A DNA stretch of 64,000 nucleotides from Escherichia phage vB_EcoP_EP32B. Positions 775 through 55,458 of this stretch are shown here, one piece after another; position 1 is the stretch's first letter, and the number at the start of each line of letters is the position of its first letter. A model generated the notes under the pieces. It had not been told where the DNA came from. It saw nothing but the letters and a program-made list of their open reading frames with translations, and searched no databases. The stretch lies in the sequence record OR544955; one strand, given 5' to 3'. Made by a program: the position numbers and the translations under genes.

Positions 775-2744
775 TGTGAAATAGGCTCCAAATCTATAGT
801 TAAGTACTGAGGACGTAAGTCATTTTCGAATACGATTAAAGAACCATCCTTTGTAAAAATAATATCATCTGCAGGGTCGGAATAAAGTTCAATTGTTTGA
901 ACTTCAAAACGGTCTGAAGTGAGGTCAATTTTAGCAATGTTCCAATAAATCGAATCGGCAGGATAATTCACTTCACCAATTGAATAGTATTTGTTTCGTC
1001 CGTCAGTAACAGTAAGTTTATTAAAATCATTACCTGTATAAGGTTGTATATTTTCGTTTTCAACAACATCACCGTCTGCAAATGGACCAATAATAACTTG
1101 ACCTATGCCACGGTCATTACGGTCAGAAGATACTATGCGAACACCGTATTTAATAGTTTCGTTTGCATTTTCTGGATTAGGTCTGTGCGAATCAAACGAG
1201 AATATATTAGATTCCATCGATCTATCTTTAATCTGATTATTGTATTTAATACCGGCCTCAGGCGTTTTATAGAAGTTTTGTACTTCGCGAACCATTTGAA
1301 TAGTAGCTGAAGAACCAATAATAGAAATATCTGCATCATCGACATAAGTTAGCATTTTAGATTTTGCAAACGATGAGTTAAAAATTTCTACATCTTCGAT
1401 ATAATATCGGTCTATTTTATTAATAATCTGCCCTTCAAGATATTGTTCTGATTCTTGGAGTTTATTCAACGCGTATGTAACTTTGATATTCATTTTGATA
1501 AACAAATAATCAGGCGAAATAACAACAGGTGTAATAGTCCCTAAGTTATAATCATTTAAATAGTTTTTGATATCATCGCGTTGGACAGAAGTCAAATACA
1601 ATCCAGATTTAGGCTTAGCAGCAATATATGCGTACCCTGGTTTAGATGAATCTGTGAATGTTTGAACCGCTTGAATAATAGAACCAAACCGCTCAGAGAC
1701 GAATGTGTCATAGTCGGAAGCGGTTACACAACGTTGTTGAGTTTCGCGTTTAATTGTGCCTAATTCGCGGATACGTTCAATATCTTCAGGGTCACCGCCA
1801 CCGTCGGCCCCGACAAAGTCTGGGTTATTGCTAGGGTTCTCGTTAATATCGATTACCGTGATATTAGCTAATGTATCAGCATAAGAAAATCCTACAGCAC
1901 CGTTGGCATCTGCGCCATTAGTAGAAATATACTCAATTACGATTTTAGAACCCTGAACAGGTTTAAGGCCACCAATATAGTTAGATGTTAACGCACCTTC
2001 TGATGTGTTAATAGAGATTTCGCCTTCACCAAAATAAAATTCTGTGTTCCCATCAACTGTTTCACGCATATAATAGATTGTTGACGTAGAACCAGCGTGA
2101 ACCATCGACTTACGAGTCCAGTTAATCCATTCTGCTCCGTCAACATACAACTTAACCAAATTACGGTCAATATTCTTATCACGAATAATGATAGGTTTTA
2201 ATCTATCAAATGTTAATTCAGTGCGAACAATACGTCCTTGAGCTAATCGAAGACGTGGAAAATATTGGTTATTTTTGTCTTTAACTACAATGACATCTTC
2301 GGTAGAAACAAAGTTATATGGGTTAACAGAAGTATCTTTAGCGTATGCTAAGAAACGAGTGCCACGTGGAATGGTGATATAGTTTCTATTTAATGCATCC
2401 GTACATGTGAGCATAATTTCTGTTTGTGCTGCTGATTTAGATGAAGGCAGATATCCGTTATCTTGAGCCGCTTGTACAACAGAACTACGCAAGTTTGCAG
2501 TACGCATAAAACTTTCATACACCGCACTATTACTGAACTGTTGGATGTAAAGAGTGTTATATGCTAAAAGGTCGCACAATACGTTTAAGCGTGAACCTTC
2601 AAAATCATAATCAAGAAATTCATTCTGCCCATTAAGCCATTCGATAATGTTCTGTTTGATTTCGGCAAATGTGCCCCCGATAAAAATCTCGGGAATAGCA
2701 TTCGCTGTTCTGGTTAATTGATAATTTACAGGAGTGTTTGCCAT
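771..2744 (-). CDS. 6: baseplate wedge protein gp6
   Basis: ORF 771..2801; start placed at internal Met MANTPVNYQLTRTANAIPEIF (T4 gp6-like N-terminus) with AGGA upstream; 657 aa. Confidence 0.85.
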   Translation of the reverse strand: MANTPVNYQLTRTANAIPEIFIGGTFAEIKQNIIEWLNGQNEFLDYDFEGSRLNVLCDLLAYNTLYIQQFSNSAVYESFMRTANLRSSVVQAAQDNGYLPSSKSAAQTEIMLTCTDALNRNYITIPRGTRFLAYAKDTSVNPYNFVSTEDVIVVKDKNNQYFPRLRLAQGRIVRTELTFDRLKPIIIRDKNIDRNLVKLYVDGAEWINWTRKSMVHAGSTSTIYYMRETVDGNTEFYFGEGEISINTSEGALTSNYIGGLKPVQGSKIVIEYISTNGADANGAVGFSYADTLANITVIDINENPSNNPDFVGADGGGDPEDIERIRELGTIKRETQQRCVTASDYDTFVSERFGSIIQAVQTFTDSSKPGYAYIAAKPKSGLYLTSVQRDDIKNYLNDYNLGTITPVVISPDYLFIKMNIKVTYALNKLQESEQYLEGQIINKIDRYYIEDVEIFNSSFAKSKMLTYVDDADISIIGSSATIQMVREVQNFYKTPEAGIKYNNQIKDRSMESNIFSFDSHRPNPENANETIKYGVRIVSSDRNDRGIGQVIIGPFADGDVVENENIQPYTGNDFNKLTVTDGRNKYYSIGEVNYPADSIYWNIAKIDLTSDRFEVQTIELYSDPADDIIFTKDGSLIVFENDLRPQYLTIDLEPISQ

Positions 2745-2752
2745 TTTAATTC

Positions 2753-3046
2753 CTATTTTATAAAGACTTTTGACGAGGCCTGAGAAACAGTATCCCCGCA
2801 TGAAATTGGGTCGGCCATTTGAACGGCCTTTTTACCGGTGACGTATACTTTAGATGTACGAGGTTCAGTAACACCTCCATGAGTCTCGTATGGTTTTTTA
2901 ATTTCTGTATGAGGTGTTATTTGGTCTCCTGCCACTAGAACAGGAATACCGCCTGTGAACACTTTAGATTGGGAAGCATTTATTACAGTAGGAGGCCATG
3001 CTTCATGACCTGCTGTAACGCACTTGTCGTAACTTAAGCCAGACAT
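2753..3046 (-). CDS. 5.4: PAAR-repeat baseplate spike tip protein gp5.4
   Basis: 97 aa from Met [21 protein letters not shown]; matches recalled T4 gp5.4 almost along its length; position between 5.1 and 6. Confidence 0.85.
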
Positions 3047-3048
3047 TT

Positions 3049-3564
3049 TCACGGCCTCACATAAACATAGTTTCGTAATTGATGAGCCCATTTGCTCCAA
3101 TTTCCTACTATAGTTTTTGTATAAACCTTAGTAAGAGTTTTTTGTACTGGAGCCGGTGGAGGTTCTGTACCAGAGTCACTTCTAGAACCGCCTGATGAAC
3201 TTTCTTCTTGGTAGTTATAAATCATTTCAACCGTATAACTAAACACTTTACGAAGATTCTGAGGAGCTCTCCACAAATATAACTGTGTGGACTCATCTTT
3301 TGGTAAATCATCCCATGAAGATGCGGTTTCAAAATCATCATTTAATCGATATTTCAATGCGTCCGAAGAAAAGCTAAACACACTTTCATATGTTCCATAT
3401 AAACGATTACCGTCTACCGTAATGCCTTGTGTCGGTTCATAATCTGTTATATTTATTGACACTAAAGTTTCGGTTGTTTCTAACTGTGGAGTAAAAAGGA
3501 CGTCAATAGACGCCCCTTCCATGTCTTCTCCTAAGTCGGTATTTAAAGGAAGTATTTGTGCCAT
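3049..3564 (-). CDS. 5.1: hypothetical protein at gp5.1 position
   Basis: 171 aa ORF immediately downstream of gp5 on minus strand; assigned by synteny only. Confidence 0.55.
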
Positions 3565-3567
3565 ATA

Positions 3568-5301
3568 TTACCCAATATCAATACGAGATCCGTCAACAGT
3601 GTATTGTCCTGAAGCTACTGAGCTCATTGTAGACATTGTTTCGGCCCAATCCCCGGCAACAGTCATATCAACATTACCATTAACAGTCCATTTAACGTTT
3701 CCGTTGACGGTGTAATCATGATTCCCTTCGACCTGAGTTTTAGCATCACCTTTAACAAGAATATCTGCATTTCCGTCAACAACTATTTTGATATTACCCT
3801 TAACGTAAAGAGTTCCATCGCCTTCAACAGTTTTAGATTGGTTACCACGAATAAAGATTGTGTCATTGCCGTCTATTTGATGGAGGCGGTCTGCCATGTT
3901 ATAATATATTTCATTAGCACCAACGTTAACAAGCTTATCGCCAGAAATCAAGAAGTTCCCATCACCATTAGTGATGTCAAAAAGGTCTTCTACAGTTTTA
4001 CGAGTACGACGCCCAGATGGAGAAACTTCCTCATATGACCCTGTTGGATGAACTAAACGATAACGTTCATTACCTGGAGTGTCATCAAATTCTTGGATAT
4101 GACCGCTTTCTGTTTCCATAGCATGAACGTATGGATACTCACCACGATAACTTGATTCCGGTTCTTTAAAAAGGATGCGTGAATCTAATGGAACAGGAGG
4201 ACCAGCCGGGTCTTCTGAATCGGTATTTCTAGTAACTAAATCGGCACCAACTCCTGGTGAAGGCGGTGTTTTAACAGGAACACCGTATGATTCCATGTTA
4301 CCGGTTAAAATAATTGTTGTTACACGTGAAGCGCGTCCTTTAGTCTGTTGGAACCATAATGAATCGCGCCCAGATTTGTATGCAGTTTTCCAATCACCTT
4401 CGGCCATTGCTTTAAGCATAGTATTGAATTTTGCTACACCACCAACGCCCATTTGGAAGCACATGTTTTCTAATGCCATTTGGCGAGATCTGTTCATTTT
4501 AGCATAAACAGGACCTACTTTAGAATTAGAACGAATGTCTTTCTGCATCTTAGCAAGGTCCTTCTCAAATAACGCTGTTGCTTCTTCTAATGTAATAGTT
4601 CCCGGATTTCCTGTTACTTCACGCCCTACTTGATCAGATAACAATTTATTAATTCGAGACATATCTCGGGTCTTTTCCATTACGATAAGGTGTCCAATAC
4701 CTACGGTAGGATATCCGAGATGGTCCCAATACACTTTATCACGAAGACCTTCGTCACGACGTAACATTTCTGTTATTGTAAAATTAGGGTCGTCATCTTC
4801 TGGAATATTTGCTAAATCTGTATCGTCTGGGTTTATACCATAATCTAAGTTGTTATCTTGAATTACGTTAGAGTTCGAATAATAACCAGCTTCACCACCT
4901 TGGTTTAATACGTTCGTATCATTACCTAAACGTCGCGGATACTGACCTGTCGGGTCTGAAAAACCTTCAAGTCTATTAGGCTTTTCACGTACAATTCCGC
5001 CATACGTACCAAGTACAATCCCGTTTGTTTTCCATTTGTCTAAGAAATGACCATATACTCGAGTTCCTTCAACAGGACCTGTAACAGAACCACCAATACC
5101 TGACATTGATGCAGACGTAATAGGTTGAATAACAGTCATCCATGGAAGTTTTTCTGTAGGAATACCTTGTACATCACCTTGTGCTCTCTGTGCCGGATGA
5201 AGTCCAACTACTCGCACTCGAACTCGCCCTTGTTTTAATGGGTCCATTCTGTCCTCGACAACACCCACGAACCAATTAAGGCTACTACTAATCATTTCCA
5301 T
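3568..5301 (-). CDS. 5: baseplate hub subunit and tail lysozyme gp5
   Basis: 577 aa; N-terminus [33 protein letters not shown], central lysozyme-like region, C-terminal VxGxxxxx beta-helix repeats. Confidence 0.95.
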   Translation of the reverse strand: MEMISSSLNWFVGVVEDRMDPLKQGRVRVRVVGLHPAQRAQGDVQGIPTEKLPWMTVIQPITSASMSGIGGSVTGPVEGTRVYGHFLDKWKTNGIVLGTYGGIVREKPNRLEGFSDPTGQYPRRLGNDTNVLNQGGEAGYYSNSNVIQDNNLDYGINPDDTDLANIPEDDDPNFTITEMLRRDEGLRDKVYWDHLGYPTVGIGHLIVMEKTRDMSRINKLLSDQVGREVTGNPGTITLEEATALFEKDLAKMQKDIRSNSKVGPVYAKMNRSRQMALENMCFQMGVGGVAKFNTMLKAMAEGDWKTAYKSGRDSLWFQQTKGRASRVTTIILTGNMESYGVPVKTPPSPGVGADLVTRNTDSEDPAGPPVPLDSRILFKEPESSYRGEYPYVHAMETESGHIQEFDDTPGNERYRLVHPTGSYEEVSPSGRRTRKTVEDLFDITNGDGNFLISGDKLVNVGANEIYYNMADRLHQIDGNDTIFIRGNQSKTVEGDGTLYVKGNIKIVVDGNADILVKGDAKTQVEGNHDYTVNGNVKWTVNGNVDMTVAGDWAETMSTMSSVASGQYTVDGSRIDIG

Positions 5302-5876
5302 TATGCAATCTCCATCTCACGAATCAAATCAGTAATAAACGAGTTTATATCTTCTTTTGCAACAATTTTTATTTTACGAAGTTTTTCATTATCTAATACT
5401 GCCGCTTCGTAAGTATCTACTGCAGCTAAAGGTCCTTTATATTGCGGATACTTACGAGCTTCATCACCTTTATCGTACCACACTAAAGGCTCGTCCGGAT
5501 ATGAAACTAAATTGTAAAATTTCTCACGATTTTCATTGATATGATAAAGAACTTGGTCTCCACCGGCATTAGCATATTTCTGAATAGAAGCTTGATACGC
5601 TGCTTCCTGAGATGTAATCCAACCATAATACGGGTCGTAGTTATCGTTACACATCAAAAGAACCCAGTATAATTGAGGGTTGCCATAAATTATGTTTGCT
5701 AGTTCTTCAGGACGCGGAGAGCCTTTAATATAATAAGAACGTAATCTATAATTGGCAGCAACACGCTTAAAGTACTCTTTATAGTTACGAAATATGTCTG
5801 TCATAGGAATAGTAGGTGCATTCTTATTAACTGTTTTAGCACTATATCCTATTGGGTCGAAGAATGTAAATAACAA
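5301..5876 (-). CDS. 53: baseplate wedge protein gp53
   Basis: 191 aa, [33 protein letters not shown], matches recalled T4 gp53; upstream of gene 5. Confidence 0.9.
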
Positions 5877-5903
5877 GATAGTCTCCTTCCAATATGAAAT
5901 TGG

Positions 5904-5911
5904 TATAAATA
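5904..5911 (+). promoter_or_regulatory. T4-type late promoter TATAAATA upstream of gene 4/2 ORF
   Basis: exact TATAAATA about 27 bp before ATG 5938, followed by AGGAGG. Confidence 0.5.
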
Positions 5912-5918
5912 ATAATAC

Positions 5919-5926
5919 TATTTATA
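5919..5926 (-). promoter_or_regulatory. T4-type late promoter TATAAATA (minus strand) upstream of gene 53
   Basis: plus-strand TATTTATA reads TATAAATA on minus strand, about 43 bp upstream of gp53 start; divergent arrangement with the gene 4 promoter. Confidence 0.45.
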
Positions 5927-5937
5927 AGGAGGACAAC

Positions 5938-7134
5938 ATGGCCTACTCTGGTAAATGGGTCCCAAAAAATTTAAAAAAATACCGTGGAGACCATACCAAA
6001 ATAACGTATCGTTCAAACTGGGAAAAATTCTTTTTCGAATGGTTAGATAAAAATCCAGAAATTATTGCATGGGGTAGTGAAACAGCAGTAATTCCATATT
6101 TTTGTAATGCTGAAGGTAAAAAACGTCGATACTATATGGACATATGGATGAAAGATGCATCAGGTCAAGAGTTCTTTGTAGAAATAAAACCAAAGAAAGA
6201 AACTCAACCACCTATTAAGCCTGCAAATCTTACTACCGCAGCAAAGAAACGTTATATGAATGAAATATATACCTGGTCTGTGAACTGTGACAAATGGAAA
6301 GCTGCCTCAGCTATGAGCATATTCCAAATTATATCTGAAGGCGTACAAGCCCCTAAGATTGCTCAGTCTATGAATGAAAGAAAATGGATTGAGATAGGAT
6401 TAGAATACAAGAAAGCTAAAGAGAAAGGAATCACTGCAAAAGCATTTGCAGAATCAAAAGGAATAAAATACTCGTCGTTTACATCTGCAATGTCTAGATA
6501 TGCATCATCTATTAAGACCGCACAGAAAATTGAAACGCTTGAATCTAAACCTAAAAATAAACTCAATAAGCAAGAACGTCAACTTCTGATGATAAACTCG
6601 TTTCGCAGTTCAATACGAGAAAAGATTAGAAATGAAGGCGCAGCAGTAAACAACAAATCATCTAAGTGGTTTGTTGAAACAATTAAGAAAAGTGTAAAAG
6701 GTCATAAAGTAGTCAAGCCTACGCCAGGCAAAATTTATACTTACGTGTATGATGCTAAACATAAAGATACTCTGCCGTATTGGGACAGATATCCTTTGAT
6801 TATTTATTTAGGATTAGGTAAACATAATTTGATGTATGGATTAAACTTGCACTATATCCCACCTAAAGCACGACAACAGTTTCTTGAAGAATTGCTGAAG
6901 CAATATGCTAGCACAACTACTATTACTAATAACACAAAGTTGAAGATAGACTGGAGCAAGGTGAAAGGATTTCAAGGTGCTGACAAAATGATTAAAGCAT
7001 ACCTGCCTGGCCACATTAGAGGAACAATAACAGAAATAGCTCCTAAAGACTGGGCTAACATAATCATGTTACCTACTCAGCAGTTTATGTCAAAAGGAAA
7101 ACGTTTCTCTGCGAATACTGTTTGGAAATCTTAA
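5938..7134 (+). CDS. single 398-codon ORF combining a head completion (gp4-like) N-terminal region and a DNA end protector (gp2-like) C-terminal region
   Basis: ATG 5938 preceded by AGGAGG; [19 protein letters not shown]...; no in-frame stop until 7134; total length close to T4 gp4 (150 aa) plus gp2 (274 aa); internal Met at codon 126 (MSIFQII) leaves 273 codons. Confidence 0.55.
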
Positions 7135-7236
7135 TTCTATTCTCTTCCGTTCGTCTGATATTCTGTTGAACCGGATTAATGGAAGAGACCTAAAACCATT
7201 ATACTGTATTTTTATTAAAGCGTTTTTGAGGTGCTT

Positions 7237-7821
7237 ATGACTCGTCCAGCGAGACAGATTTTTAACCAAACAAATATAACAAACTTTGTTGTGGATATCC
7301 CAGATAGTACACGAACTTCGGGTTTTGTGCTCAATGCCCAAACGGCTCCATTGCCAGGTGTGAGAATTCCTGTTGTTGAAACCGTGACAGGCACAATGGG
7401 GTTAGGACGTGCAATGCGTGCAGGCACCACATTTGAATATGACCCTTTTATTGTACGATTTATAGTTGATGAAGACATGACGTCCTGGATGAACATGTAT
7501 AAATGGATGCTCAGCACTAATAACTATATAACCGGACATAATACGGCACACTCTGATGGTCCTGAGTTTGTTACTTTGCACATTTTAAACAACAATAAGA
7601 CCGAAGTAGTTTTGACGGCAAATTTCTATAAACCGTGGATTTCCGATCTGAGCGAAATTGAATTTAGTTACACTGAAGACTCTGACCCTGCCGTTACGTG
7701 CGTAGCAACTATTCACTACGCGTATATGACGATAGAAAAAGATGGCGAAGTCATTGTATCTCAACAACCACGTCAATCGGTCGAATCTAAATCCATTTCT
7801 AGACACCCTTCCTTGCGTTAA
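7237..7821 (+). CDS. 3: tail completion / sheath stabilizer protein gp3 (by synteny)
   Basis: 194 aa from MTRPARQIF; sits between 2 and 1 as in T4. Confidence 0.55.
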   Translation: MTRPARQIFNQTNITNFVVDIPDSTRTSGFVLNAQTAPLPGVRIPVVETVTGTMGLGRAMRAGTTFEYDPFIVRFIVDEDMTSWMNMYKWMLSTNNYITGHNTAHSDGPEFVTLHILNNNKTEVVLTANFYKPWISDLSEIEFSYTEDSDPAVTCVATIHYAYMTIEKDGEVIVSQQPRQSVESKSISRHPSLR

Positions 7822-7875
7822 TCGCTTCTAGCTCCGTATGTTATAATCACTCATAAATTATATGAGGAAAAACCT

Positions 7876-8610
7876 ATGGAGCTAATCTTTTTAAGTGGCA
7901 TCAAACGTAGCGGTAAAGACACTACTGCTGATTACATCAATTCAAACTTTAAATCCGTAAAATACCAATTGGCATATCCGATTAAAGACGCTCTAGCAAT
8001 AGCCTGGGGACGTAAACATGCTGAAAATCCTAATGTATTCACAGAGTTGAAATACGAATACTTTGAAGGCATTGGATACGACCGTGAAACACCATTAAAT
8101 CTCAATAAGTTGGATGTTATTGAATTATTGGAAGAAGCGCTAATTTATTTGCAAAGCCAATATTTACCAATTAATAATGTTAAAGTATTATCATCGTTAG
8201 AAGGTGGATATTCATATCTAGATATTAAACCGTATGAAGCCCTGCGTGAAGCTATAAATAATATCAACGACACATGGTCAATCCGCCGTCTTATGCAAGC
8301 CCTCGGTACGGATGTTGTCGTTAATTTATTTGACCGTATGTATTGGGTTAAACTTTTTGCATTAAACTATATGGATTATATTGGAAGTGATTTCGATTAC
8401 TATGTCGTAACCGATACACGCCAAGTCCATGAAATGGAAACCGCTAGAGCGATGGGTGCTACAGTTATTCATGTGGTTCGCTCTGGTACGGAATCCACCG
8501 ATAAACATATTACAGAAGCTGGGTTGCCTATTGAAGAAGGCGATTTAGTTATTACAAACGACGGCTCTTTAGAAGAGCTTTATTCTAAAATTGAAACAAT
8601 CTTAAGGTAA
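7876..8610 (+). CDS. 1: deoxynucleoside monophosphate kinase gp1
   Basis: 244 aa; MELIFLSGIKRSGKDTTADYI P-loop; C-terminal region matches recalled T4 gp1 closely. Confidence 0.9.
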   Translation: MELIFLSGIKRSGKDTTADYINSNFKSVKYQLAYPIKDALAIAWGRKHAENPNVFTELKYEYFEGIGYDRETPLNLNKLDVIELLEEALIYLQSQYLPINNVKVLSSLEGGYSYLDIKPYEALREAINNINDTWSIRRLMQALGTDVVVNLFDRMYWVKLFALNYMDYIGSDFDYYVVTDTRQVHEMETARAMGATVIHVVRSGTESTDKHITEAGLPIEEGDLVITNDGSLEELYSKIETILR

Positions 8611-8614
8611 TAAA

Positions 8615-9300
<686 letters not shown>

Positions 9301-47757: not shown

Positions 47758-47797
47758 TATAATGCCAAGGACGGCCAACTAATTAAATGAGAGAAAT

Positions 47798-48273
47798 ATG
47801 AAAACTACTCCTATTACTATCGCTATTGACGCAATCATAAAACAAGCTTCTTCTTTGGCCGCTATGGCCAAAGTAATTAGTCAAAACCCTGCTCGTTATA
47901 ATGCTATTCTAGAAACTCTTCGACGCCCTGGACTGAGTAATTATGAAAGTCGTGTAATTATTACAGGTGTTGGTAAGAACGCTAATATCGCAACTAAAGC
48001 TTCCGAGACATTTGCTTCACTCGGTATCCCGAGTATGTACTTGAACACTGGGCATTATTCTCACGGTGATGCAGGATTCATTGCGCCTAATGAGGCATCG
48101 CGGTAGAGGTTGATGAGAATTCTCTGGCTCCGACAATGTCTACTACATTGTTGTTAGCGCTTATCGATACGTTCGCTATCAACCTTTCGTCTGAACGTGG
48201 ATTTACCTCTAATGATTTCCTTAAGTTCCATCCAGGCGGTGCACTAGGTGCCATGTTACGAGGCGAACAATGA
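47798..48273 (+). pseudogene. SIS-domain sugar-phosphate isomerase (arabinose-5-phosphate isomerase KdsD/GutQ-like), disrupted
   Basis: N-terminal fragment RVIITGVGKNANIATKASETFASLGIPSMYLNTGHYSHGDAGFI stops at 48106; a different frame encodes the SIS C-terminus LAPTMSTTLLLALIDTFAINL...FHPGGALGAMLRG; central segment missing. Confidence 0.6.
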
Positions 48274-48413
48274 AAGCAATAACAATAGGACTTTTACTAT
48301 TGATGCTTGTCATGACTATCTACTGGAGCTTAACGGCTCCGGTAATGATTCCAACACTTGTAATTGGATGGATTATGATTGGACTACAAGCAAAGTATGA
48401 ATGCTTTAACTAG
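48270..48413 (+). CDS. small hydrophobic membrane peptide (47 aa)
   Basis: MKAITIGLLLLMLVMTIYWSLTAPVMIPTLVIGWIMIGL; ATGA overlap; below track cutoff. Confidence 0.35.
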   Translation: MKAITIGLLLLMLVMTIYWSLTAPVMIPTLVIGWIMIGLQAKYECFN

Positions 48414-48454
48414 AATAGTGTACAATACACCTACTTACCAATGAGGACTTCAAC

Positions 48455-50140
48455 ATGAAAAAAGCTGTTATTCTTGGTGCTGGACTGGCAACTCGTTTGT
48501 ATCCAATAACGCATCATATTCCAAAAGTTCTTGTGAACTATAAACAAGACACTATTCTGAGCAATTTGTATACAATTTATTCTGACCTTGGCGCAGATGA
48601 AATTATTGTAGTAGTTCATTCAAAATTTGCTGAAACTGTTCGAGCTTATTGTGAGCAAGAAGGGTTCAATGTGACTATTCGTACAGTTGATGAAGCGTAT
48701 GGTTCTGCTTATGCTCTTGCTAAATTACACAAAGATTTAGATGGCCATAACGTAATTGTTAACTGGTGTGATATTATTCCTGATTTTGGTTCATGGTCTT
48801 GGAATGTTAATGCAATCTATGTTAAGGGTGACGAATGTCGATATAATTTTGACGGTGAAAATATCACTAACGTAGGTTCAACAGGTGGTAATGTTGTAGG
48901 AATTTATCAGTTCAAAGACTGGGAATTCTACATGGGTTCTACTGATGAGGAAATTCACGAATACTGCAAAGGTCGTGATTTCGTAGAATTCCTTTACGGC
49001 AGCGCATTCAATAAATCAGAGCTTATGAATCTAATTGATTTAGGTGATATGCCTAAACTTGAAAAAGCTCATGAAGTTCGTGAACTTAATCGTAGTTTTA
49101 ATGCAGTTGAAATTGGTGAAGAAACTGTAACTAAATTCGCATTAACCGAACAAGGTCGAGCTCTTCAAAAAGATGAGATTTCATGGTATTTGAAAGTGAA
49201 ATCAGATTCAGTTCCTCAGTTAGTTTCGGTAAATGAAAATAATTTTGAAATGGAACGCATTAAAGGTAAGCCGGCATTTGAATATATTAAATCCAAATCA
49301 AGTCTTGCTCGTCCACAAATTGTTGATGCAATTTTAGATGCACTGAAATTCAGCACAGACACTTATTTTGTAAGTCCTGAAACTGTTCGTCGTGATTTCA
49401 CTAAAGAATTCTATACGAAAGTTATTGATCGTTGTGAAAGCATTCAGCCATTGATTGATTCATTTGGTAAAATCACACACGTGAACTACACTAAGATTGG
49501 ACGTCTGAAGCCAATGCTGAAGCAAGCTTTAGAACATCTTATTCGTTATCATACCCGTTCTCAGGGACAGTACTCTGTTATTCATGGTGACCCGAACTTC
49601 AGTAATACTATGATTACTGATAATGGCGAAGTCAAGTTTATCGACCCTCGTGGATATTTTGGCGAAACCAAGATTTACGGGCCAAAATTGTACGATGAAG
49701 CTAAAGTGCTTTATGCTGTTTCAGGTTATGATGAATTCAACGCTAATCCGACCTGGGGACAGTTTACTATTGACGAAACAACTTGTAATGTGACTATTAA
49801 CATCAATCCATTAGTTTACAAATATGGAAAGATGAGTTCGTTTAACGAGTATCATCATTTGGCTGTAGCAATTATCTGGATTGCATTAGGTGGTTATTTC
49901 AAGAATAATCCACTTAAAGCGGTAGCCGCATATTATAAAGGTATGGAACTTCTGACTAAGCAATTACGTAACATGGGCCGTGTACTTCAAGACGGCTCTA
50001 TTAGTTATGACGTAGCAGAACCTGTAACGGCTACTCTGATTACAAAAAATCCTGGTAAATGGGTACTAACTGATAAAGAAACTGGTGTTTCTTATCGTCC
50101 AATCGGTGGCGATATCACTCATCAATGGGAACGAATCTAA
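48455..50140 (+). CDS. bifunctional sugar-phosphate nucleotidyltransferase / sugar kinase
   Basis: N-terminus VILGAGLATRLYP (NTP-transferase G-x-G-x-R signature); C-terminal kinase motifs HGDPNFSNTMI and FIDPRGYFG (aminoglycoside/choline kinase-like fold); 561 aa. Confidence 0.75.
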   Translation: MKKAVILGAGLATRLYPITHHIPKVLVNYKQDTILSNLYTIYSDLGADEIIVVVHSKFAETVRAYCEQEGFNVTIRTVDEAYGSAYALAKLHKDLDGHNVIVNWCDIIPDFGSWSWNVNAIYVKGDECRYNFDGENITNVGSTGGNVVGIYQFKDWEFYMGSTDEEIHEYCKGRDFVEFLYGSAFNKSELMNLIDLGDMPKLEKAHEVRELNRSFNAVEIGEETVTKFALTEQGRALQKDEISWYLKVKSDSVPQLVSVNENNFEMERIKGKPAFEYIKSKSSLARPQIVDAILDALKFSTDTYFVSPETVRRDFTKEFYTKVIDRCESIQPLIDSFGKITHVNYTKIGRLKPMLKQALEHLIRYHTRSQGQYSVIHGDPNFSNTMITDNGEVKFIDPRGYFGETKIYGPKLYDEAKVLYAVSGYDEFNANPTWGQFTIDETTCNVTININPLVYKYGKMSSFNEYHHLAVAIIWIALGGYFKNNPLKAVAAYYKGMELLTKQLRNMGRVLQDGSISYDVAEPVTATLITKNPGKWVLTDKETGVSYRPIGGDITHQWERI

Positions 50141-50526
50141 TGCACCGTGTAGAAAACATGCTTAATCTTTGTTTTGATGTCGATGATTGTATAACAGAGT
50201 GGAATAACAATCGTGATTACGTGAACTTCAAACCAGACGTCGAAATGGTGACTGCTATTAATGCCCTGTATGATGCAGGGCATACCATAACGCTTTACAC
50301 TGCTCGTGGTATGAAGTCAGTAGGTCCTGGTCGTATAGCAATTGACATTCTCCCAAGTCTGATTCAGAACTTGGAAAACATTGGTTTGAAGTACCATAAT
50401 TTGCTAACACATAAACCAGTATATGATTGGATTATCGACGACAAAGCTATGCGTCCCGACGAATTCAAAGCTCTTATGAATAAAGGCGAATTCGAAACAT
50501 TTAAATCATATAAACCGAATCTATAA
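50140..50526 (+). CDS. HAD-superfamily phosphatase
   Basis: motif I FDVDDCIT, later DWIIDDK; start MHRVEN overlapping upstream stop. Confidence 0.6.
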   Translation: MHRVENMLNLCFDVDDCITEWNNNRDYVNFKPDVEMVTAINALYDAGHTITLYTARGMKSVGPGRIAIDILPSLIQNLENIGLKYHNLLTHKPVYDWIIDDKAMRPDEFKALMNKGEFETFKSYKPNL

Positions 50527-50582
50527 TAATTTAAGTAAGACCTGCAAAAACCATCGCATAAATTAACGTGAGATGCAAAAAA

Positions 50583-51743
50583 ATGAATACTTTTAAAATT
50601 GGAACGAATTTTGATTTAGCTCTTCTTGATAAAATCGTAGAGCTCAATAAAACTTATCCTAATAGCTTGATAAACGAAGTATACGGCTCTACAAGAGAAA
50701 TGGCTTTTGTAGCAGCCAGACCTGATTTTAGGCTTCCTGACGTTGACAAAAAGATGTTAGAAGATTACGTTAAACGTTGTAACGAATTAGGTATTTGCTT
50801 TAACTATACACTCAACACGATAAATCCTGGTTCAAAAAGAGAACTAGTCGAGTGGAAGAAGAAAGCTATTCAGGATTATGTTCAGTATCTTTGGTCAATA
50901 GGCGTATGGCGTATTACTATCGCTAACCCTGTTGTTATGGAAATTGTTCGTGAAGTCAATAAAGACATTGAGATTGAAGTTTCAACAATTCTACATGTCG
51001 ATGCTGTAACTCAAATAAAATACTTGCATGACCAATATAATATCAAAAAGGTCTGCTGTGGAATTCATAAGAACCGTTCAGTTTCTTTCCTGAAGCGTGC
51101 AGCAGAGTTTTGCAATAAGAACAATATAATATTTGAAGTTCTTGTAAATGAGTTCTGTTCTAATGCTGGTAAAGGGTATACAACACATTGTAGCTATCGT
51201 GACTCTTGCTATATTTTCCATAGTACTGATGTTACAGCCGATGATGCTAAATCCTTAAACGGGTATCCTATGCAGCACTGTATTAAAGCTCGTGATACAG
51301 ACCCATTTAACTGGTTGAGAACTCGTTTTGTTCGTCCTCAAGATTTGAAACTTTATAATGATATTGGTATCACTCAATTCAAAGTTTCAGGACGTACAGG
51401 TAGCACAGACTACATTTTGAAAGTTCTTGAAGCATACGCTTCTGAAAAGTTTGAAGGTAATTTGTTAGAACTGTGGAAGCCTTTAGAGACTATTTTCACT
51501 CTTGAAAATGAAACTGAGTTTTCACATACAGTAAATATTGAAACCTCTTTGTTAGATGGCTTTTTAGAAAAAAGGTGGTTCAGACATCCAGATTTTGATT
51601 GTGCTAATGAAATCTGTGGATCAACGTGTACATATTGTGAAAGATATTATAAACGTCAATTATCTAAAAACGGGTTAGCAGAAAACTCTATATCTATTAT
51701 TGATATAACTAACTCTGATGACGCTTTGAGGTACCCGGAATGA
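50583..51743 (+). CDS. Cys-rich enzyme-like protein of unknown function (386 aa)
   Basis: large ORF inside the modification cluster; cysteine clusters CCGIHKN, EFCSNAGKGYTTHCSYRDSC and CANEICGSTCTYCE. Confidence 0.6.
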   Translation: MNTFKIGTNFDLALLDKIVELNKTYPNSLINEVYGSTREMAFVAARPDFRLPDVDKKMLEDYVKRCNELGICFNYTLNTINPGSKRELVEWKKKAIQDYVQYLWSIGVWRITIANPVVMEIVREVNKDIEIEVSTILHVDAVTQIKYLHDQYNIKKVCCGIHKNRSVSFLKRAAEFCNKNNIIFEVLVNEFCSNAGKGYTTHCSYRDSCYIFHSTDVTADDAKSLNGYPMQHCIKARDTDPFNWLRTRFVRPQDLKLYNDIGITQFKVSGRTGSTDYILKVLEAYASEKFEGNLLELWKPLETIFTLENETEFSHTVNIETSLLDGFLEKRWFRHPDFDCANEICGSTCTYCERYYKRQLSKNGLAENSISIIDITNSDDALRYPE

Positions 51744-51979
51744 TTTCTAGAAAAACTTTTAATCACCAACTTAATGAAGAGATTTTGACTATTAAAATTA
51801 ACACTAACGAACAAATTCTTAAAAAGGCCCTTATGGGCCTGTTTGAAACTAAAGCGGCTAAAGTGATTAAAGAACCTGTTCAATTGGAATACTACGCTGA
51901 TGCATTTCTTCATAGTGTTCTTGGAAGTATCGATGCTGAAGCTTTACGTTATATCAACATTGTCAAGAAATTCAAATAA
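51740..51979 (+). CDS. hypothetical protein (79 aa)
   Basis: ATGA overlap. Confidence 0.5.
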   Translation: MISRKTFNHQLNEEILTIKINTNEQILKKALMGLFETKAAKVIKEPVQLEYYADAFLHSVLGSIDAEALRYINIVKKFK

Positions 51980-52003
51980 GCTTTACGAATTGAGTATATA
52001 ATA
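51980..52003 (+). promoter_or_regulatory. promoter upstream of the hydroxymethylase-like gene
   Basis: GCTTTAC then GTATATAAT at about 17 bp spacing. Confidence 0.4.
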
Positions 52004-52021
52004 AATTGTATTGAGGTAAAC

Positions 52022-52738
52022 ATGGGAAAACATAACACAATGAAATATATCAAAGCCGCAGATTTTCAAACCGCATTTAAAGCAGTCAATCGTGAAATTT
52101 TAGAAAACCCGGAATTCGTAACTGATTCTCGTATTGGACGTTGTAATGAAATTGGGTCTATGACAGTAGTTGTTGACACTCCATCATCATTCAAAATGAC
52201 CGACCCGCGTATTAACCGCATCTCTTATGAATATGCCGAAGACTTCTGGAAGTTTATGATTTCTGGTGGTACTGACGCAGAAGAAGCGTTTAAGGCATAT
52301 CCTAATGTCGCTAAATTTATTTCTAAACCAAAATCAGATGCTTTGCCTGCAAACTTCAACACTTTCTATGGTCCTCGCATTGCGGCCCAATTACCAGCTC
52401 TTCTAAAAGAACTTAAAGAGAAGCCTAACTCCAGAAGAGTTGTGTTCCAAATTCTAGAAAGTTCTGATCAGGCTTTGCTTGATTCGGACGAAACGCTTGA
52501 ATATCCATGTACTGACTCAGTGACTTATTATATTCGTGACGGTAAGCTTTATACCCACTGTCATATGCGTTCCCAGAACTGTGCTGTTGTTATGCAGTTG
52601 GATTTTTATCTCCAAGGAAAATTACTTCATTATATCGCTAACGAATGCGGTGTAGAAGTTGGTGATTATACTCATACCATGGTAAGTGCCCATGTGTTTG
52701 AACGTGATTTTGATTATGTTAAAGGATTCCTTGACTAA
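52022..52738 (+). CDS. thymidylate synthase-fold enzyme, divergent deoxypyrimidine nucleotide hydroxymethylase (gene 42 position)
   Basis: YPCTDSVTYYIRDGKLYTHCHMRSQNCAVVMQLDFYLQ aligns with the catalytic Cys and MRSxD region of TS / dCMP hydroxymethylase; rest of protein unlike T4 gp42 as recalled. Confidence 0.7.
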   Translation: MGKHNTMKYIKAADFQTAFKAVNREILENPEFVTDSRIGRCNEIGSMTVVVDTPSSFKMTDPRINRISYEYAEDFWKFMISGGTDAEEAFKAYPNVAKFISKPKSDALPANFNTFYGPRIAAQLPALLKELKEKPNSRRVVFQILESSDQALLDSDETLEYPCTDSVTYYIRDGKLYTHCHMRSQNCAVVMQLDFYLQGKLLHYIANECGVEVGDYTHTMVSAHVFERDFDYVKGFLD

Positions 52739-53637
52739 TGGCTATTTTCCGCGTACCAATCTTGAGTATGCGGTCTTATGAAACTGGTCAGTATGCTATC
52801 CTTAAGGATGGCAACTTCCAACTTCATTTGCACCGTGCTAATCCGGGTGATGTGATTACATATCCACGTAATGCATCTGATATTAAAGAATGCGAACGTC
52901 TTTTTCCGGAATTTAAGTTTGTTCCATTATGGTATAAAGATAACGCGTATAACACTCGTAAATATTTCTGGTCTGAAAATGAATTTGTGGTTGATTCATT
53001 AATTGCTTATTATGATTGTGATTTTCTAATCACAGATATCACTGGTTATGATGGCGCTTTTGACGTAGAATTCAATTTCAATATCACTGCAGACCCTAAT
53101 AAACCACGTTTTTATATTGATGAATTCTTAAAAACTGATATGTTGTCGGTTAATCGTTCACTTCAAACTACTGTGTTGAATGAACGTCAAAAAGAAGTGC
53201 TGGTTAACGCAGGTGCAGATGGTAATAAGATTATCGTAACGCAGAAAGTTATACGTCCTTCCGTCATGCAGCGTCTTGTAGGTGATTTGGCTCCTATTCA
53301 TCTAGATGGTATTTTTCATCCATTTCGAATTAGTGACCCATGCTATCGTTTTGAACAAGTGGTTGAATGCGCAATTCAATTAGGTCAACCGCTTTATATA
53401 ACTGATCCAAATAATAGTTTCGACAGAAATAAGTATCCTGAAGAAGCGCTGATTCGAATTTTTAATCCAACTAAAACTGAGTACTATCAAATTCTTAAAG
53501 GACGTCCGAAGATTCAATATTTCGAAAATCCTGAAGAAGTATTCCATCCAGGTCTTGGTGAGTTCATCTACTTTAATGCTTTAATTTCTTCACCGTATAA
53601 TATACCTAAATACGAAGATGTCGTAATCGAGGAATAA
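52738..53637 (+). CDS. hypothetical protein (299 aa), candidate DNA sugar transferase by position
   Basis: occupies the slot after the hydroxymethylase where T4 carries beta-glucosyltransferase; no recognised motif. Confidence 0.5.
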   Translation: MAIFRVPILSMRSYETGQYAILKDGNFQLHLHRANPGDVITYPRNASDIKECERLFPEFKFVPLWYKDNAYNTRKYFWSENEFVVDSLIAYYDCDFLITDITGYDGAFDVEFNFNITADPNKPRFYIDEFLKTDMLSVNRSLQTTVLNERQKEVLVNAGADGNKIIVTQKVIRPSVMQRLVGDLAPIHLDGIFHPFRISDPCYRFEQVVECAIQLGQPLYITDPNNSFDRNKYPEEALIRIFNPTKTEYYQILKGRPKIQYFENPEEVFHPGLGEFIYFNALISSPYNIPKYEDVVIEE

Positions 53638-53638
53638 A

Positions 53639-54187
53639 ATGGCTAAAATTATTTTAGTAGACGGGCCGGATAATGCTGGTAAAACAACTTTCATTAATGA
53701 CATAATGGAAATTAGTGAAAGATATGTAAAGATTGATTTCCCTAAACGAACAGTTGATGGGCGTTTCGATGTTAAGTCTCGAAATGAAGTCGGCTGTTTC
53801 GAAACGATGTTGAATTATTTGGACCCTACTAAGATTTATCTGTTAGACCGTGGATATATTAGTAACTGGGTTTATGGACGTATTCGACAAGATGTGGACT
53901 CGGTTCTTGACGTTTATGAACAGGATTATGTTCGTCTTTGCCAAAACCATGATGTGTTCACAATTATTTTAACACGTAACGAAATGACTGAAAGTTTTGA
54001 AGACGACCTTATTACTTTGTCTTCATTCGGTTTTAATACAGTCATTTCATATTTTGAAGAGTTTGCAATTCATAACAAAATCCAAACGTATCAATTACTT
54101 AATCATGATGGTGCTAATAAAGTTATAGGATTTAACGCAAGCGAACGTAATAATTTGATTACAGAAATCATCAAATGGGCTCGTTAA
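53639..54187 (+). CDS. P-loop nucleoside/nucleotide kinase-like protein
   Basis: Walker A GPDNAGKTT at N-terminus, LLDRGY region; 182 aa. Confidence 0.65.
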   Translation: MAKIILVDGPDNAGKTTFINDIMEISERYVKIDFPKRTVDGRFDVKSRNEVGCFETMLNYLDPTKIYLLDRGYISNWVYGRIRQDVDSVLDVYEQDYVRLCQNHDVFTIILTRNEMTESFEDDLITLSSFGFNTVISYFEEFAIHNKIQTYQLLNHDGANKVIGFNASERNNLITEIIKWAR

Positions 54188-54204
54188 GAGCCATTTAAAG
54201 TTTT

Positions 54205-54232
54205 AAATGCTGTATAACCCTTAGTATATAAT
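54205..54232 (+). promoter_or_regulatory. possible MotA-dependent middle promoter for uvsX
   Basis: AAATGCTGTA element about 20 bp upstream of GTATATAAT. Confidence 0.3.
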
Positions 54233-54285
54233 CATCTTATCTTTTAAACATGAGTAAAATATAATGATGCCTATGGAAAAATACA

Positions 54286-55458
54286 ATGTCTGATTTAAAA
54301 TCTCGTCTGATTAAAGCTTCTACTTCTAAAATGACTGCAGACTTGACTAAGTCTAAGCTGTTTAATAATCGTGATGAAGTCCCTACTCGTATTCCGATGT
54401 TGAATATTGCATTAGGTGGTGCACTGAATGCCGGGTTGCAATCAGGCTTAACTATTTTTGCTGCTCCTTCTAAACACTTTAAAACGTTGTTTGGACTAAC
54501 TATGGTTGCAGCGTATATGAAGAAATATAAAGATGCAATCTGTTTGTTTTATGACTCAGAATTCGGTGCTTCGGAATCTTATTTTCGTTCAATGGGTGTT
54601 GATTTAGACCGTGTAGTTCATACTCCGATTCAATCTGTCGAACAACTTAAGGTTGATATGACTAATCAGCTTGACGCGATTGAACGCGGTGATAAAGTTA
54701 TTATCTTTATCGATTCAATCGGTAATACTGCATCTAAGAAAGAAACCGAAGATGCGTTGAACGAGAAAGTTGTAGGTGATATGTCTCGTGCTAAGGCACT
54801 TAAATCTCTGTTCCGCATTGTGACTCCTTATCTGACTATTAAAGATATTCCGTGTGTTGCAATTAACCATACTGCAATGGAAATTGGCGGACTATATCCT
54901 AAAGAGATTATGGGCGGTGGTACAGGTATTCTTTATTCTGCCAACACGGTATTTTTTATCTCTAAACGTCAGGTTAAAGAAGGTACAGAATTGACCGGTT
55001 ATGACTTTACGTTGAAAGCGGAAAAATCTCGTACAGTTAAAGAGAAATCTACTTTCCCGATCACGGTTAATTTTGATGGCGGTATTGACCCATTCAGTGG
55101 CTTGTTAGAAATGGCAACTGAAATTGGATTTGTTGTTAAGCCTAAAGCCGGGTGGTATGCTCGTGAATTCCTTGACGAAGAAACAGGTGAAATGATTCGT
55201 GAAGAAAAATCATGGCGTGCTAAAGCTACTGATTGTGTAGAATTCTGGGGACCTTTGTTTAAACACAAACCTTTCCGAGATGCAATTGAAACTAAATATA
55301 AACTAGGTGCTATCTCTTCTATTAAAGAAGTTGATGACGCTGTTAACGACCTTATTAATTGCAAAGCAACAACTAAAGTTCCGGTTAAAACTTCTGATGC
55401 TCCGTCTGCAGCAGATATAGAAAACGACCTTGACGAAATGGAAGATTTCGATGAATAA
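54286..55458 (+). CDS. uvsX: RecA-like recombinase UvsX
   Basis: 390 aa; MSDLKSRLIKASTSKMTADLTKSKLF, RecA-fold ATPase with acidic C-terminus. Confidence 0.95.
   Translation: MSDLKSRLIKASTSKMTADLTKSKLFNNRDEVPTRIPMLNIALGGALNAGLQSGLTIFAAPSKHFKTLFGLTMVAAYMKKYKDAICLFYDSEFGASESYFRSMGVDLDRVVHTPIQSVEQLKVDMTNQLDAIERGDKVIIFIDSIGNTASKKETEDALNEKVVGDMSRAKALKSLFRIVTPYLTIKDIPCVAINHTAMEIGGLYPKEIMGGGTGILYSANTVFFISKRQVKEGTELTGYDFTLKAEKSRTVKEKSTFPITVNFDGGIDPFSGLLEMATEIGFVVKPKAGWYAREFLDEETGEMIREEKSWRAKATDCVEFWGPLFKHKPFRDAIETKYKLGAISSIKEVDDAVNDLINCKATTKVPVKTSDAPSAADIENDLDEMEDFDE

Follow-up and report, generated by a model that had tools for sequence, protein, structure and literature searches.

Why does a phage with a T4 gp1-type deoxynucleoside monophosphate (dNMP) kinase carry a second P-loop kinase among its DNA modification genes? 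The question is raised by Escherichia phage vB_EcoP_EP32B (sequence record OR544955), of which a stretch of 64,000 nucleotides, called the window below, was analysed. The second kinase is encoded at 53639..54187 on the + strand. A preliminary description, made without database searches, had pointed to a 182-aa protein with an N-terminal GPDNAGKTT, placed it beside a 'hydroxymethylase' and in addition to gp1, and suggested that it may phosphorylate a modified nucleotide, a hydroxymethylated (hm) dCMP or dUMP, so that this can enter DNA synthesis. Judged by its sequence, the kinase is a divergent, shortened member of the thymidylate kinase (TMPK) superfamily and not a canonical dTMP kinase. On balance we favour a core enzyme of the glycosylated-5-hydroxycytosine module, with a free 2'-deoxynucleoside monophosphate as its substrate.

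The gene is already known in kind as a predicted nucleotide kinase. Table 1 of Lee et al. (Nucleic Acids Res 2026; PMC13326640) gives RB69p045 (NP_861735.1) and DLP3_078 as 'Nucleotide kinase'; both are the same gene as the window kinase, with no difference in the gene itself. That label is fold-based only; the protein was neither discussed nor assayed, and gp1 (gp159) was used as the pathway kinase (PMC13326640). The Thanatos paper makes no mention of the kinase. Added here are sequence-level homology to the TMPK superfamily, an inventory of motifs, the rejection of the gp1 and 5-hydroxymethyluracil DNA kinase (5-HMUDK) families, a base-side deletion and the breadth of a synthase-glycosyltransferase-kinase triad. 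The kinase gene and its parts are as follows.

53639..54187, + strand: kinase gene, 182 aa, TMPK superfamily; orthologue of RB69 ORF045c/RB69p045
53629..53633, + strand: Shine-Dalgarno sequence GAGGA, 5 nt 5' of the kinase ATG, by direct sequence reading
53663..53689, + strand: P-loop/Walker A GPDNAGKTT, residues 9-17, with TMPK-typical acidic D11; in register with yeast TMPK GLDRTGKTT
53738..53749, + strand: FPKR motif, residues 34-37, counterpart of type I TMPK FPER/FPQR
53846..53875, + strand: DRGYISNWVY, residues 70-79, counterpart of TMPK DRY..S..Y
53975..54013, + strand: R113 and FEDDLI block, residues 113-125, a putative short LID-equivalent that has a conserved Arg and two adjacent acidic residues

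The open reading frame (ORF) starts with ATG and encodes 182 aa, with the N-terminus MAKIILVDGPDNAGKTT as read from the sequence. It is not a chance ORF, because homologues occur in 343 phage records (tblastn; query coverage of at least 80% in 343 of 343), the protein matches PHROG 761, and the P-loop and DR residues are invariant. The match to PHROG 761, labelled 'thymidylate kinase', has an E-value of 7e-45 and spans residues 1-180. RB69 ORF045c is identical at 178 of 182 residues (98%), and the window region has 98% DNA identity to many RB69-like phages (Mosigvirus). Many records name the kinase 'thymidylate kinase'; the GenBank record of HY126 calls its orthologue a 'hypothetical protein' and contains no Afh names. 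The family is small: an exhaustive profile search of 1.84 billion representatives yields 309 clusters at E<=1e-3. ORF, ribosome-binding site and conservation across the 343 records thus confirm the protein and P-loop of the preliminary description.

Motifs place the protein near the TMPKs. FPKR is in register with FPER in the yeast and FPQR in the vaccinia enzyme; F34, P35 and K36 are invariant in alignment A1, and in alignment A2 K36 is conserved to at least 90%. DRGYISNWVY aligns in register with DRYVYSGVAY in the yeast and DRFVLSTIAY in the Aquifex enzyme, with Gly and not an aromatic as its third residue. The DRY..S..Y motif of TMPKs binds the phosphate and sugar of the nucleoside monophosphate (NMP). 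Among 49 homologues, G9, D11, G14, K15, D70, R71 and D122 are invariant, and K36, S75, N76, Y79, R113, D123 and N133 are at least 90% conserved. R113 follows directly after strand 4 and is a possible candidate for the catalytic Arg that TMPKs have in the P-loop (type I) or the LID (type II); a family-specific block, SRNEVxxFETML, lies in the region expected to face the base. In TMPKs the acidic P-loop residue hydrogen-bonds the free 3'-OH of dTMP, and the invariance of D11 therefore favours a mononucleotide over DNA as substrate.

Profile comparisons give significant homology at the level of the superfamily. The 49-sequence profile matches yeast, Candida, Aquifex, vaccinia, S. aureus, human and M. 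tuberculosis TMPKs with E-values of 1e-8 to 1e-5 (yeast 1tmk, 1.2e-8; Aquifex 2pbr, 3e-8; vaccinia 2v54, 3.7e-7; S. aureus 2ccj, 6e-7 over positions 3-178; human, 3e-6). An 18-sequence profile gave marginal TMPK matches and an artefact from repetitive RecA fusion chains. Single-sequence searches of Pfam and NCBIfam returned P-loop-level matches only, and those of PDB sequences nothing meaningful. An AlphaFold2 model built with 18 homologues has a mean local confidence (pLDDT) of 87.4 and a predicted TM-score (pTM) of 0.85, with low pLDDT in the LID-equivalent stretch. Foldseek matches of the model in PDB and BFVD (viral models) are mostly TMPKs; the closest folds are TMPKs, followed by YorR/BSU20280 (12.3), NadR, PPK2 and deoxynucleoside kinases. 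The kinase has in common with TMPKs (PF02223, TIGR00041; yeast 1tmk, vaccinia 2v54, Thermus 5x7j) the acidic P-loop residue, FPxR and DRxxxSxxxY. It differs from them in its low identity (12-20%), its short LID-equivalent with conserved FEDD and its cytosine-modification context.

The best sequence-profile match of all is YorR (E 1.3e-9, positions 3-149), from the B. subtilis prophage SPbeta (PDB 2axp, 3kb2), which has the same short architecture and likewise lacks the extra stretch of TMPKs. Its PDB entries call it only a 'hypothetical' or 'uncharacterized' protein. We know of no function assigned to YorR, nor of 5-hydroxycytosine (5hoC) DNA in SPbeta, and no function is therefore transferred from it to the phage kinase. 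The alignment with thymidylate kinases that the preliminary description had proposed thus gives significant profile homology with three motifs in register. Its 'dNMP-kinase-like' holds as far as a TMPK-type P-loop NMP-kinase fold with intact catalytic motifs is meant, and fails for a kinase of the gp1 type.

The genes around the kinase belong to a known pathway. Together with gp1, those needed below are as follows.

7876..8610, + strand: canonical T4 gp1-type dNMP kinase, orthologue of RB69 gp159, the window's first kinase; PHROG 139, E 1.2e-59
48455..50140, + strand: bifunctional sugar kinase/nucleotidyltransferase, AfhE-like (RB69 gp52:53); Pfam NTP_transferase, weak APH-like kinase match; PHROG 4098
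50125..50526, + strand: HAD-type phosphatase, AfhF-like (RB69 gp51); PHROG 1238
52022..52738, + strand: 5-hydroxy-dCMP (5hodCMP) synthase, ThyA homologue (RB69 gp48), first gene of the triad; 100% identity to RB69 gp48; MRSQN...D
52738..53637, + strand: putative first arabinosyltransferase, here GT1 (RB69 gp46:47), 299 aa, directly 5' of the kinase; PHROG 3891, E 1e-155

RB69 DNA carries arabinose ether-linked to 5-hydroxycytosine, and RB69 gp48 synthesises 5-hydroxy-dCMP in a flavin-dependent reaction and is no hydroxymethylase (PMC13326640). An Asn at the position of E. coli D169 together with an Asp at that of N177 is the published diagnostic signature of 5hodCMP synthases. The 'hydroxymethylase' of the preliminary description is accordingly a 5-hydroxy-dCMP synthase, and 5-hydroxy-dCMP replaces hm-dCMP and hm-dUMP as the modified nucleotide (100% identity to RB69 gp48; PMC13326640; MRSQN...D signature). 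The synthase and the kinase lie in the same tight unit, and the direct neighbour of the kinase is not the synthase but the putative arabinosyltransferase. GT1 is so assigned in Table 1 of PMC13326640, where the roles of the AfhE-like and AfhF-like proteins are put in the UDP-arabinofuranose branch.

The spacing of the three genes is tight. GT1 overlaps the ThyA-homologue gene (52022..52738) by one shared base, and its TAA stop (53635-53637) is followed one base later by the kinase ATG. The 1-nt gap and the shared base suggest that synthase, GT1 and kinase are a co-expressed unit. A promoter and terminator scan of 47500-54400 found fewer promoter-like sites than in shuffled sequence and no terminator 3' of the kinase gene; the scan was uninformative, which leaves gene spacing as the basis of the operon structure. 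Between the kinase gene and uvsX (54286..55458), the + strand at 54208..54232 has TGCTGTA and, 12 nt on, TATAAT, which resembles a T4-type MotA-dependent middle promoter for uvsX; the sigma-70 scan does not have this site among its listed promoters. A 5-bp hairpin, GGCTC/GAGCC, straddles the kinase stop codon. If middle promoter and hairpin are real, the kinase gene closes its transcription unit.

Across phages the kinase keeps this company. It lies inside the modification cluster in six Straboviridae lineages sampled, with rearranged gene order: RB69, JS98 (Dhakavirus), a Klebsiella phage, Proteus Pm5461 (Bragavirus), Pseudomonas PspYZU05 (Jiangsuvirus) and Shewanella Thanatos-2. Kinase, GT1 and AfhE-like gene have homologues in 343, 348 and 373 phage records (tblastn), in near-identical numbers by host genus (Escherichia 176/176/176, Acinetobacter 57/57/57, Shigella 15/15/15). 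More distant homologues on metagenomic contigs (L017, L019, L021; 25-34% identity) are flanked by a PHROG 3891 glycosyltransferase (E 1e-52 to 1e-91) and by a ThyA homologue of about 235 aa. Eight of the eight aligned ThyA homologues from kinase-containing loci have MRS(Q/E/N)N...D; a genuine thymidylate synthase on the same contig as its D169N paralogue has QRSCD...N. The kinase stands beside both a D169N ThyA homologue and a PHROG 3891 glycosyltransferase in the window, JS98, Thanatos-2, L017, L019 and L021; for the Klebsiella, Proteus and PspYZU05 loci the same neighbours are read from annotation only. It adjoins GT1, or has one small ORF in between, in RB69, PspYZU05, Thanatos-2, Rhizobium phage RL38J1, L017, L019 and L021, and likewise in DLP3 (PMC13326640, Table 1). 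The tie to base-modification genes noted in the preliminary description is thus found at every locus inspected.

Two further features of the metagenomic loci were seen. Contigs L017/L018, from one uncultured phage, hold a compact form of the module, outside the cultured Straboviridae, in about 8 kb (1193..8870): thymidylate synthase, its D169N paralogue, DHFR, a MazG-like PRA-PH protein, SIS, AfhE-like gene, kinase, GT1 and an Acb1 anti-CBASS nuclease. On L007 (9068..9613) and L019 (3507..4016), genes of the FMN reductase/flavodoxin type adjoin D169N-type ThyA homologues. This suggests that some phages may bring their own flavin reductase and fits the reported flavin dependence of 5hodCMP synthases.

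RL38J1 (Pootjesviridae) shows which part of the pathway the kinase follows. The first sugar of its DNA is galactose, not arabinose, and it lacks the arabinose branch yet keeps a triad kinase. Its genes follow the transcription order synthase, GT1, TMPK-fold kinase, and a separate gp1-type kinase is present as well. Its synthase is 30% identical to that of the window (E 2e-32) and its GT1 27% (E 2e-8, same PHROG). Since the order is the same despite galactose, the kinase tracks the 5-hydroxycytosine base and its first glycosylation, not arabinose synthesis. RL38J1 supports an analogous triad, as far as these comparisons reach, rather than strict orthology of the kinases.

Two kinase families with a place in phage DNA modification were tried and rejected. 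T4 gp1 (PDB 1dek/1del) is likewise an NMP kinase with a P-loop and works in a modified-cytosine pathway. Its family (PHROG 139, PF21448) was rejected on an hhalign probability of 0.7% between the kinase and the window gp1. That gp1 is itself real, as the preliminary description had said, and the kinase is an additional, second one. The 5-HMUDKs, which phosphorylate 5-hydroxymethyl-deoxyuridine (5-hmdU) in DNA (M6 gp54, SP10 gp186N, ViI gp67), are likewise P-loop kinases beside a ThyA-superfamily enzyme in a hypermodification cluster. This family was rejected because the kinase has no PF18748 match even at E<=1. The positive controls M6 gp54 and SP10 gp186 score 65 and 83 bits, and SP10 gp186 also matches the PF18723 helical-domain model. 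Both controls belong to PHROG 800 and the window kinase to PHROG 761. Similarity by hhalign is centred on the P-loop (83% to M6 gp54, 5% to SP10 gp186). The P-loop reads GPDNAGK in the window kinase and RGCNGxGK in 5-HMUDKs, which lack the DR motif. Moreover, phosphorylation by 5-HMUDKs takes place on DNA and produces a leaving group, for which the ether-linked 5hoC product appears to have no need. No glycosylase-fold partner (aGPT-PPlase/HMUDK helical domain) was found in the seven other cluster proteins of the window that were scanned. PHROG 800 is labelled 'terminase small subunit', the name that M6 gp54 (L006 11686..12249) bears in RefSeq (SP10 gp186 lies at L011 17383..19296); on 5-hmdU DNA kinases this label looks like a propagated mis-annotation.

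Some distant relatives have an additional domain. Several metagenomic PHROG 761 relatives of about 310-360 aa end in an HhH-GPD-like domain (P0058, P0060) or a domain of the uracil-DNA glycosylase (UDG) superfamily (P0140; L016 200..1129), and P0065 and P0067 in about 150 residues that Pfam does not recognise. This architecture recalls SP10 gp186, a 5-hmdU DNA kinase fused to a glycosylase-fold enzyme (PMC5889632). P0058 (L007 8001..9074) clusters with genes for a dCMP deaminase, a dUTPase, a 394-aa ThyA homologue (MRSNN), an FMN reductase, a SIS isomerase and an AfhE-like protein; no PHROG 3891 glycosyltransferase is visible in this cluster. By its gene content it may represent a different, undescribed base-hypermodification pathway. 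A search of viral contigs for loci related to P0058 and P0065 found none.

What, then, is phosphorylated? For the substrate and for the roles of single residues we infer the following course. The ThyA-like synthase (52022..52738) would make 5-hydroxy-dCMP. With ATP, the kinase would convert it to the diphosphate, using K15 and T16 of Walker A and, for Mg2+, D70. The substrate phosphate would be held by R71, K36/R37 and possibly R113, and the free 3'-OH by D11. Host nucleoside diphosphate kinase and then the phage polymerase would bring the nucleotide into DNA, with the kinase working beside gp1 as a pathway-dedicated enzyme. From motifs and gene context, a mononucleotide kinase for a substrate of the 5-hydroxy-dCMP type is probable; that the substrate is 5hodCMP itself is a more tentative proposal, which we would put at somewhat below even chances. 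Phosphorylation of a modified nucleotide, as first suggested, therefore stays the best reading. Its second half, that this step is needed for entry into DNA synthesis, is weakened: RB69 gp159, the gp1 homologue, phosphorylates 5hodCMP to 5hodCDP, and expression of the synthase genes is reported to suffice for 5hodC formation in E. coli (PMC13326640).

Several observations weigh against a TMPK-like kinase of 5-hydroxy-dCMP. The protein reaches 12.3 bits with PF02223 (cut-off 27 bits), over residues 7-26 only, and 16.8 bits with TIGR00041 (cut-off 83.25 bits), over residues 3-28 only. It lacks 16-18 residues that yeast, Candida and Aquifex TMPKs have between FPxR and the next helix, a stretch that we take, from TMPK structures, to close over the base. 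The P-loop Arg of type I TMPKs is replaced by N12. The kinase of RL38J1 is related only remotely (BLASTP not significant, hhalign 71%, PR in place of DR), and the glycosylase-domain fusions of PHROG 761 hint at work on DNA. Finally, a plain 5hodCMP kinase would be redundant with gp1, yet the gene is strictly conserved, and two phage families have retained a second kinase in addition to gp1.

The redundancy would vanish if GT1 glycosylated 5-hydroxy-dCMP before replication and the kinase converted arabinosyl-5-hydroxy-dCMP to its diphosphate, for incorporation by the polymerase as a glycosylated dCTP analogue. A second kinase would then be explained despite the activity of gp1 on 5hodCMP, and gp1 may not accept the arabinosyl form. 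We consider this unlikely, though it deserves to be taken seriously. The conserved unit is synthase, GT1 and kinase, with the kinase close to GT1, and between RB69-like phages and RL38J1, which differ in first sugar, the kinase diverged far more than synthase or GT1. The missing 16-18 residues could leave room for a bulky C5 substituent, an argument from the alignment and not from coordinates. MshA and sucrose-phosphate synthase use small phosphorylated acceptors. Both are the best structural matches of GT1, and individual glycosyltransferases were inactive on 5hoC-DNA (PMC13326640), but this negative result is given as 'data not shown', and an inactive enzyme could account for it. Glycosylation before replication would also explain the lack of reports of unglycosylated 5hoC from virion DNA; on the other side, no arabinosylated nucleotide is reported in pools, and later arabinose additions have been shown on DNA. 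Glycosylation is post-replicative in every well-studied case of phage DNA, as in the glucosylation of T-even phages.

Other substrates fit less well. An ordinary dTMP kinase that boosts dTTP supply, unrelated to cytosine modification, would agree with the name used in many records, as in RefSeq and Pharokka-type annotations, and in PHROG 761, and with the closest folds and profile matches, which are TMPKs. It is nevertheless improbable: the protein falls below all curated dTMP-kinase cut-offs, its base-side region differs through the deletion and its own SRNEVxxFETML block, and gp1 already phosphorylates dTMP in T-even phages. Such a role would also leave unexplained the genus counts equal to those of GT1 and the sugar-activation genes, and the cluster position at every inspected locus. 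More doubtful still is a post-replicative DNA-base kinase, acting on the 5-OH of 5hoC or on a sugar hydroxyl as a step in glycosylation or its regulator. The fusions that mirror SP10 gp186, one of them clustered with ThyA-like, FMN reductase, SIS isomerase and AfhE-like genes, point that way, as does the fact that first glycosylation of plain 5hoC-DNA could not be reconstituted. Against it stand the lack of a PF18748 match, the different PHROG, the P-loop-centred similarity, and D11 and DR..S..Y, which are TMPK features for holding a free deoxynucleotide. The 5-O is also kept as the ether bridge to the sugar (PMC13326640), so that a phosphate leaving group would have no obvious role. We give the least credence to a non-nucleotide substrate from the pathway (arabinose phosphate, flavin or nicotinamide riboside) or to a catalytically silent accessory protein. 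The synthase is flavin-dependent, and two related clusters have flavin reductase or flavodoxin genes, but the sugar-phosphate steps are already given to AfhE and AfhF, RL38J1 keeps the triad kinase without an arabinose branch, and the nucleotide-site motifs of TMPKs are conserved. A silent protein is made less likely by the invariance of the Walker A Lys and the DR Asp.

Two observations concern other genes of the window cluster. The RB69 record AY303349 splits GT1 into ORF047c and ORF046c and the AfhE-like gene into ORF053c and ORF052c (L001 7739..8639 and 3456..5142); in the window both are uninterrupted ORFs of 299 and 561 aa, in agreement with the report that the RB69 splits are sequencing errors (PMC13326640). 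A 'peptidase U32' gene at 50568..51743 (+ strand), accompanied by a small ORF at 51740..51979, matches Pfam U32 (E 7e-11), PHROG 5757 and, weakly, UbiU. It is present in RB69, the Klebsiella phage, Proteus Pm5461 and Thanatos-2 and was not seen at the JS98 and PspYZU05 loci. The U32 family includes RlhA (ho5C2501 in 23S rRNA), TrhP (ho5U34 in tRNA) and UbiU/UbiV, O2-independent hydroxylation factors with prephenate as oxygen donor (PMC5727448, PMC6599085, PMC10990095). By analogy, the gene, labelled only 'sugar or heterocycle reductase' in PMC13326640, could provide a second, oxygen-independent route of C5 hydroxylation for anaerobic hosts, beside the O2-dependent flavin enzyme.

Only synthase, first glycosyltransferase and kinase, three genes in all, remain together in every case where DNA with glycosylated 5-hydroxycytosine is made. 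The substrate of the kinase would decide whether the first sugar is added before or after replication, a timing that PMC13326640 leaves open. If it is the glycosylated nucleotide, the kinase would offer a route to the enzymatic synthesis of sugar-bearing dNTPs. The pathway would then also be the first case known to us in which a sugar hypermodification of phage DNA is pre-replicative. If instead the kinase duplicates gp1 on 5hodCMP, it would be an ordinary pathway-dedicated kinase, and the widespread annotation as 'thymidylate kinase' would be corrected.

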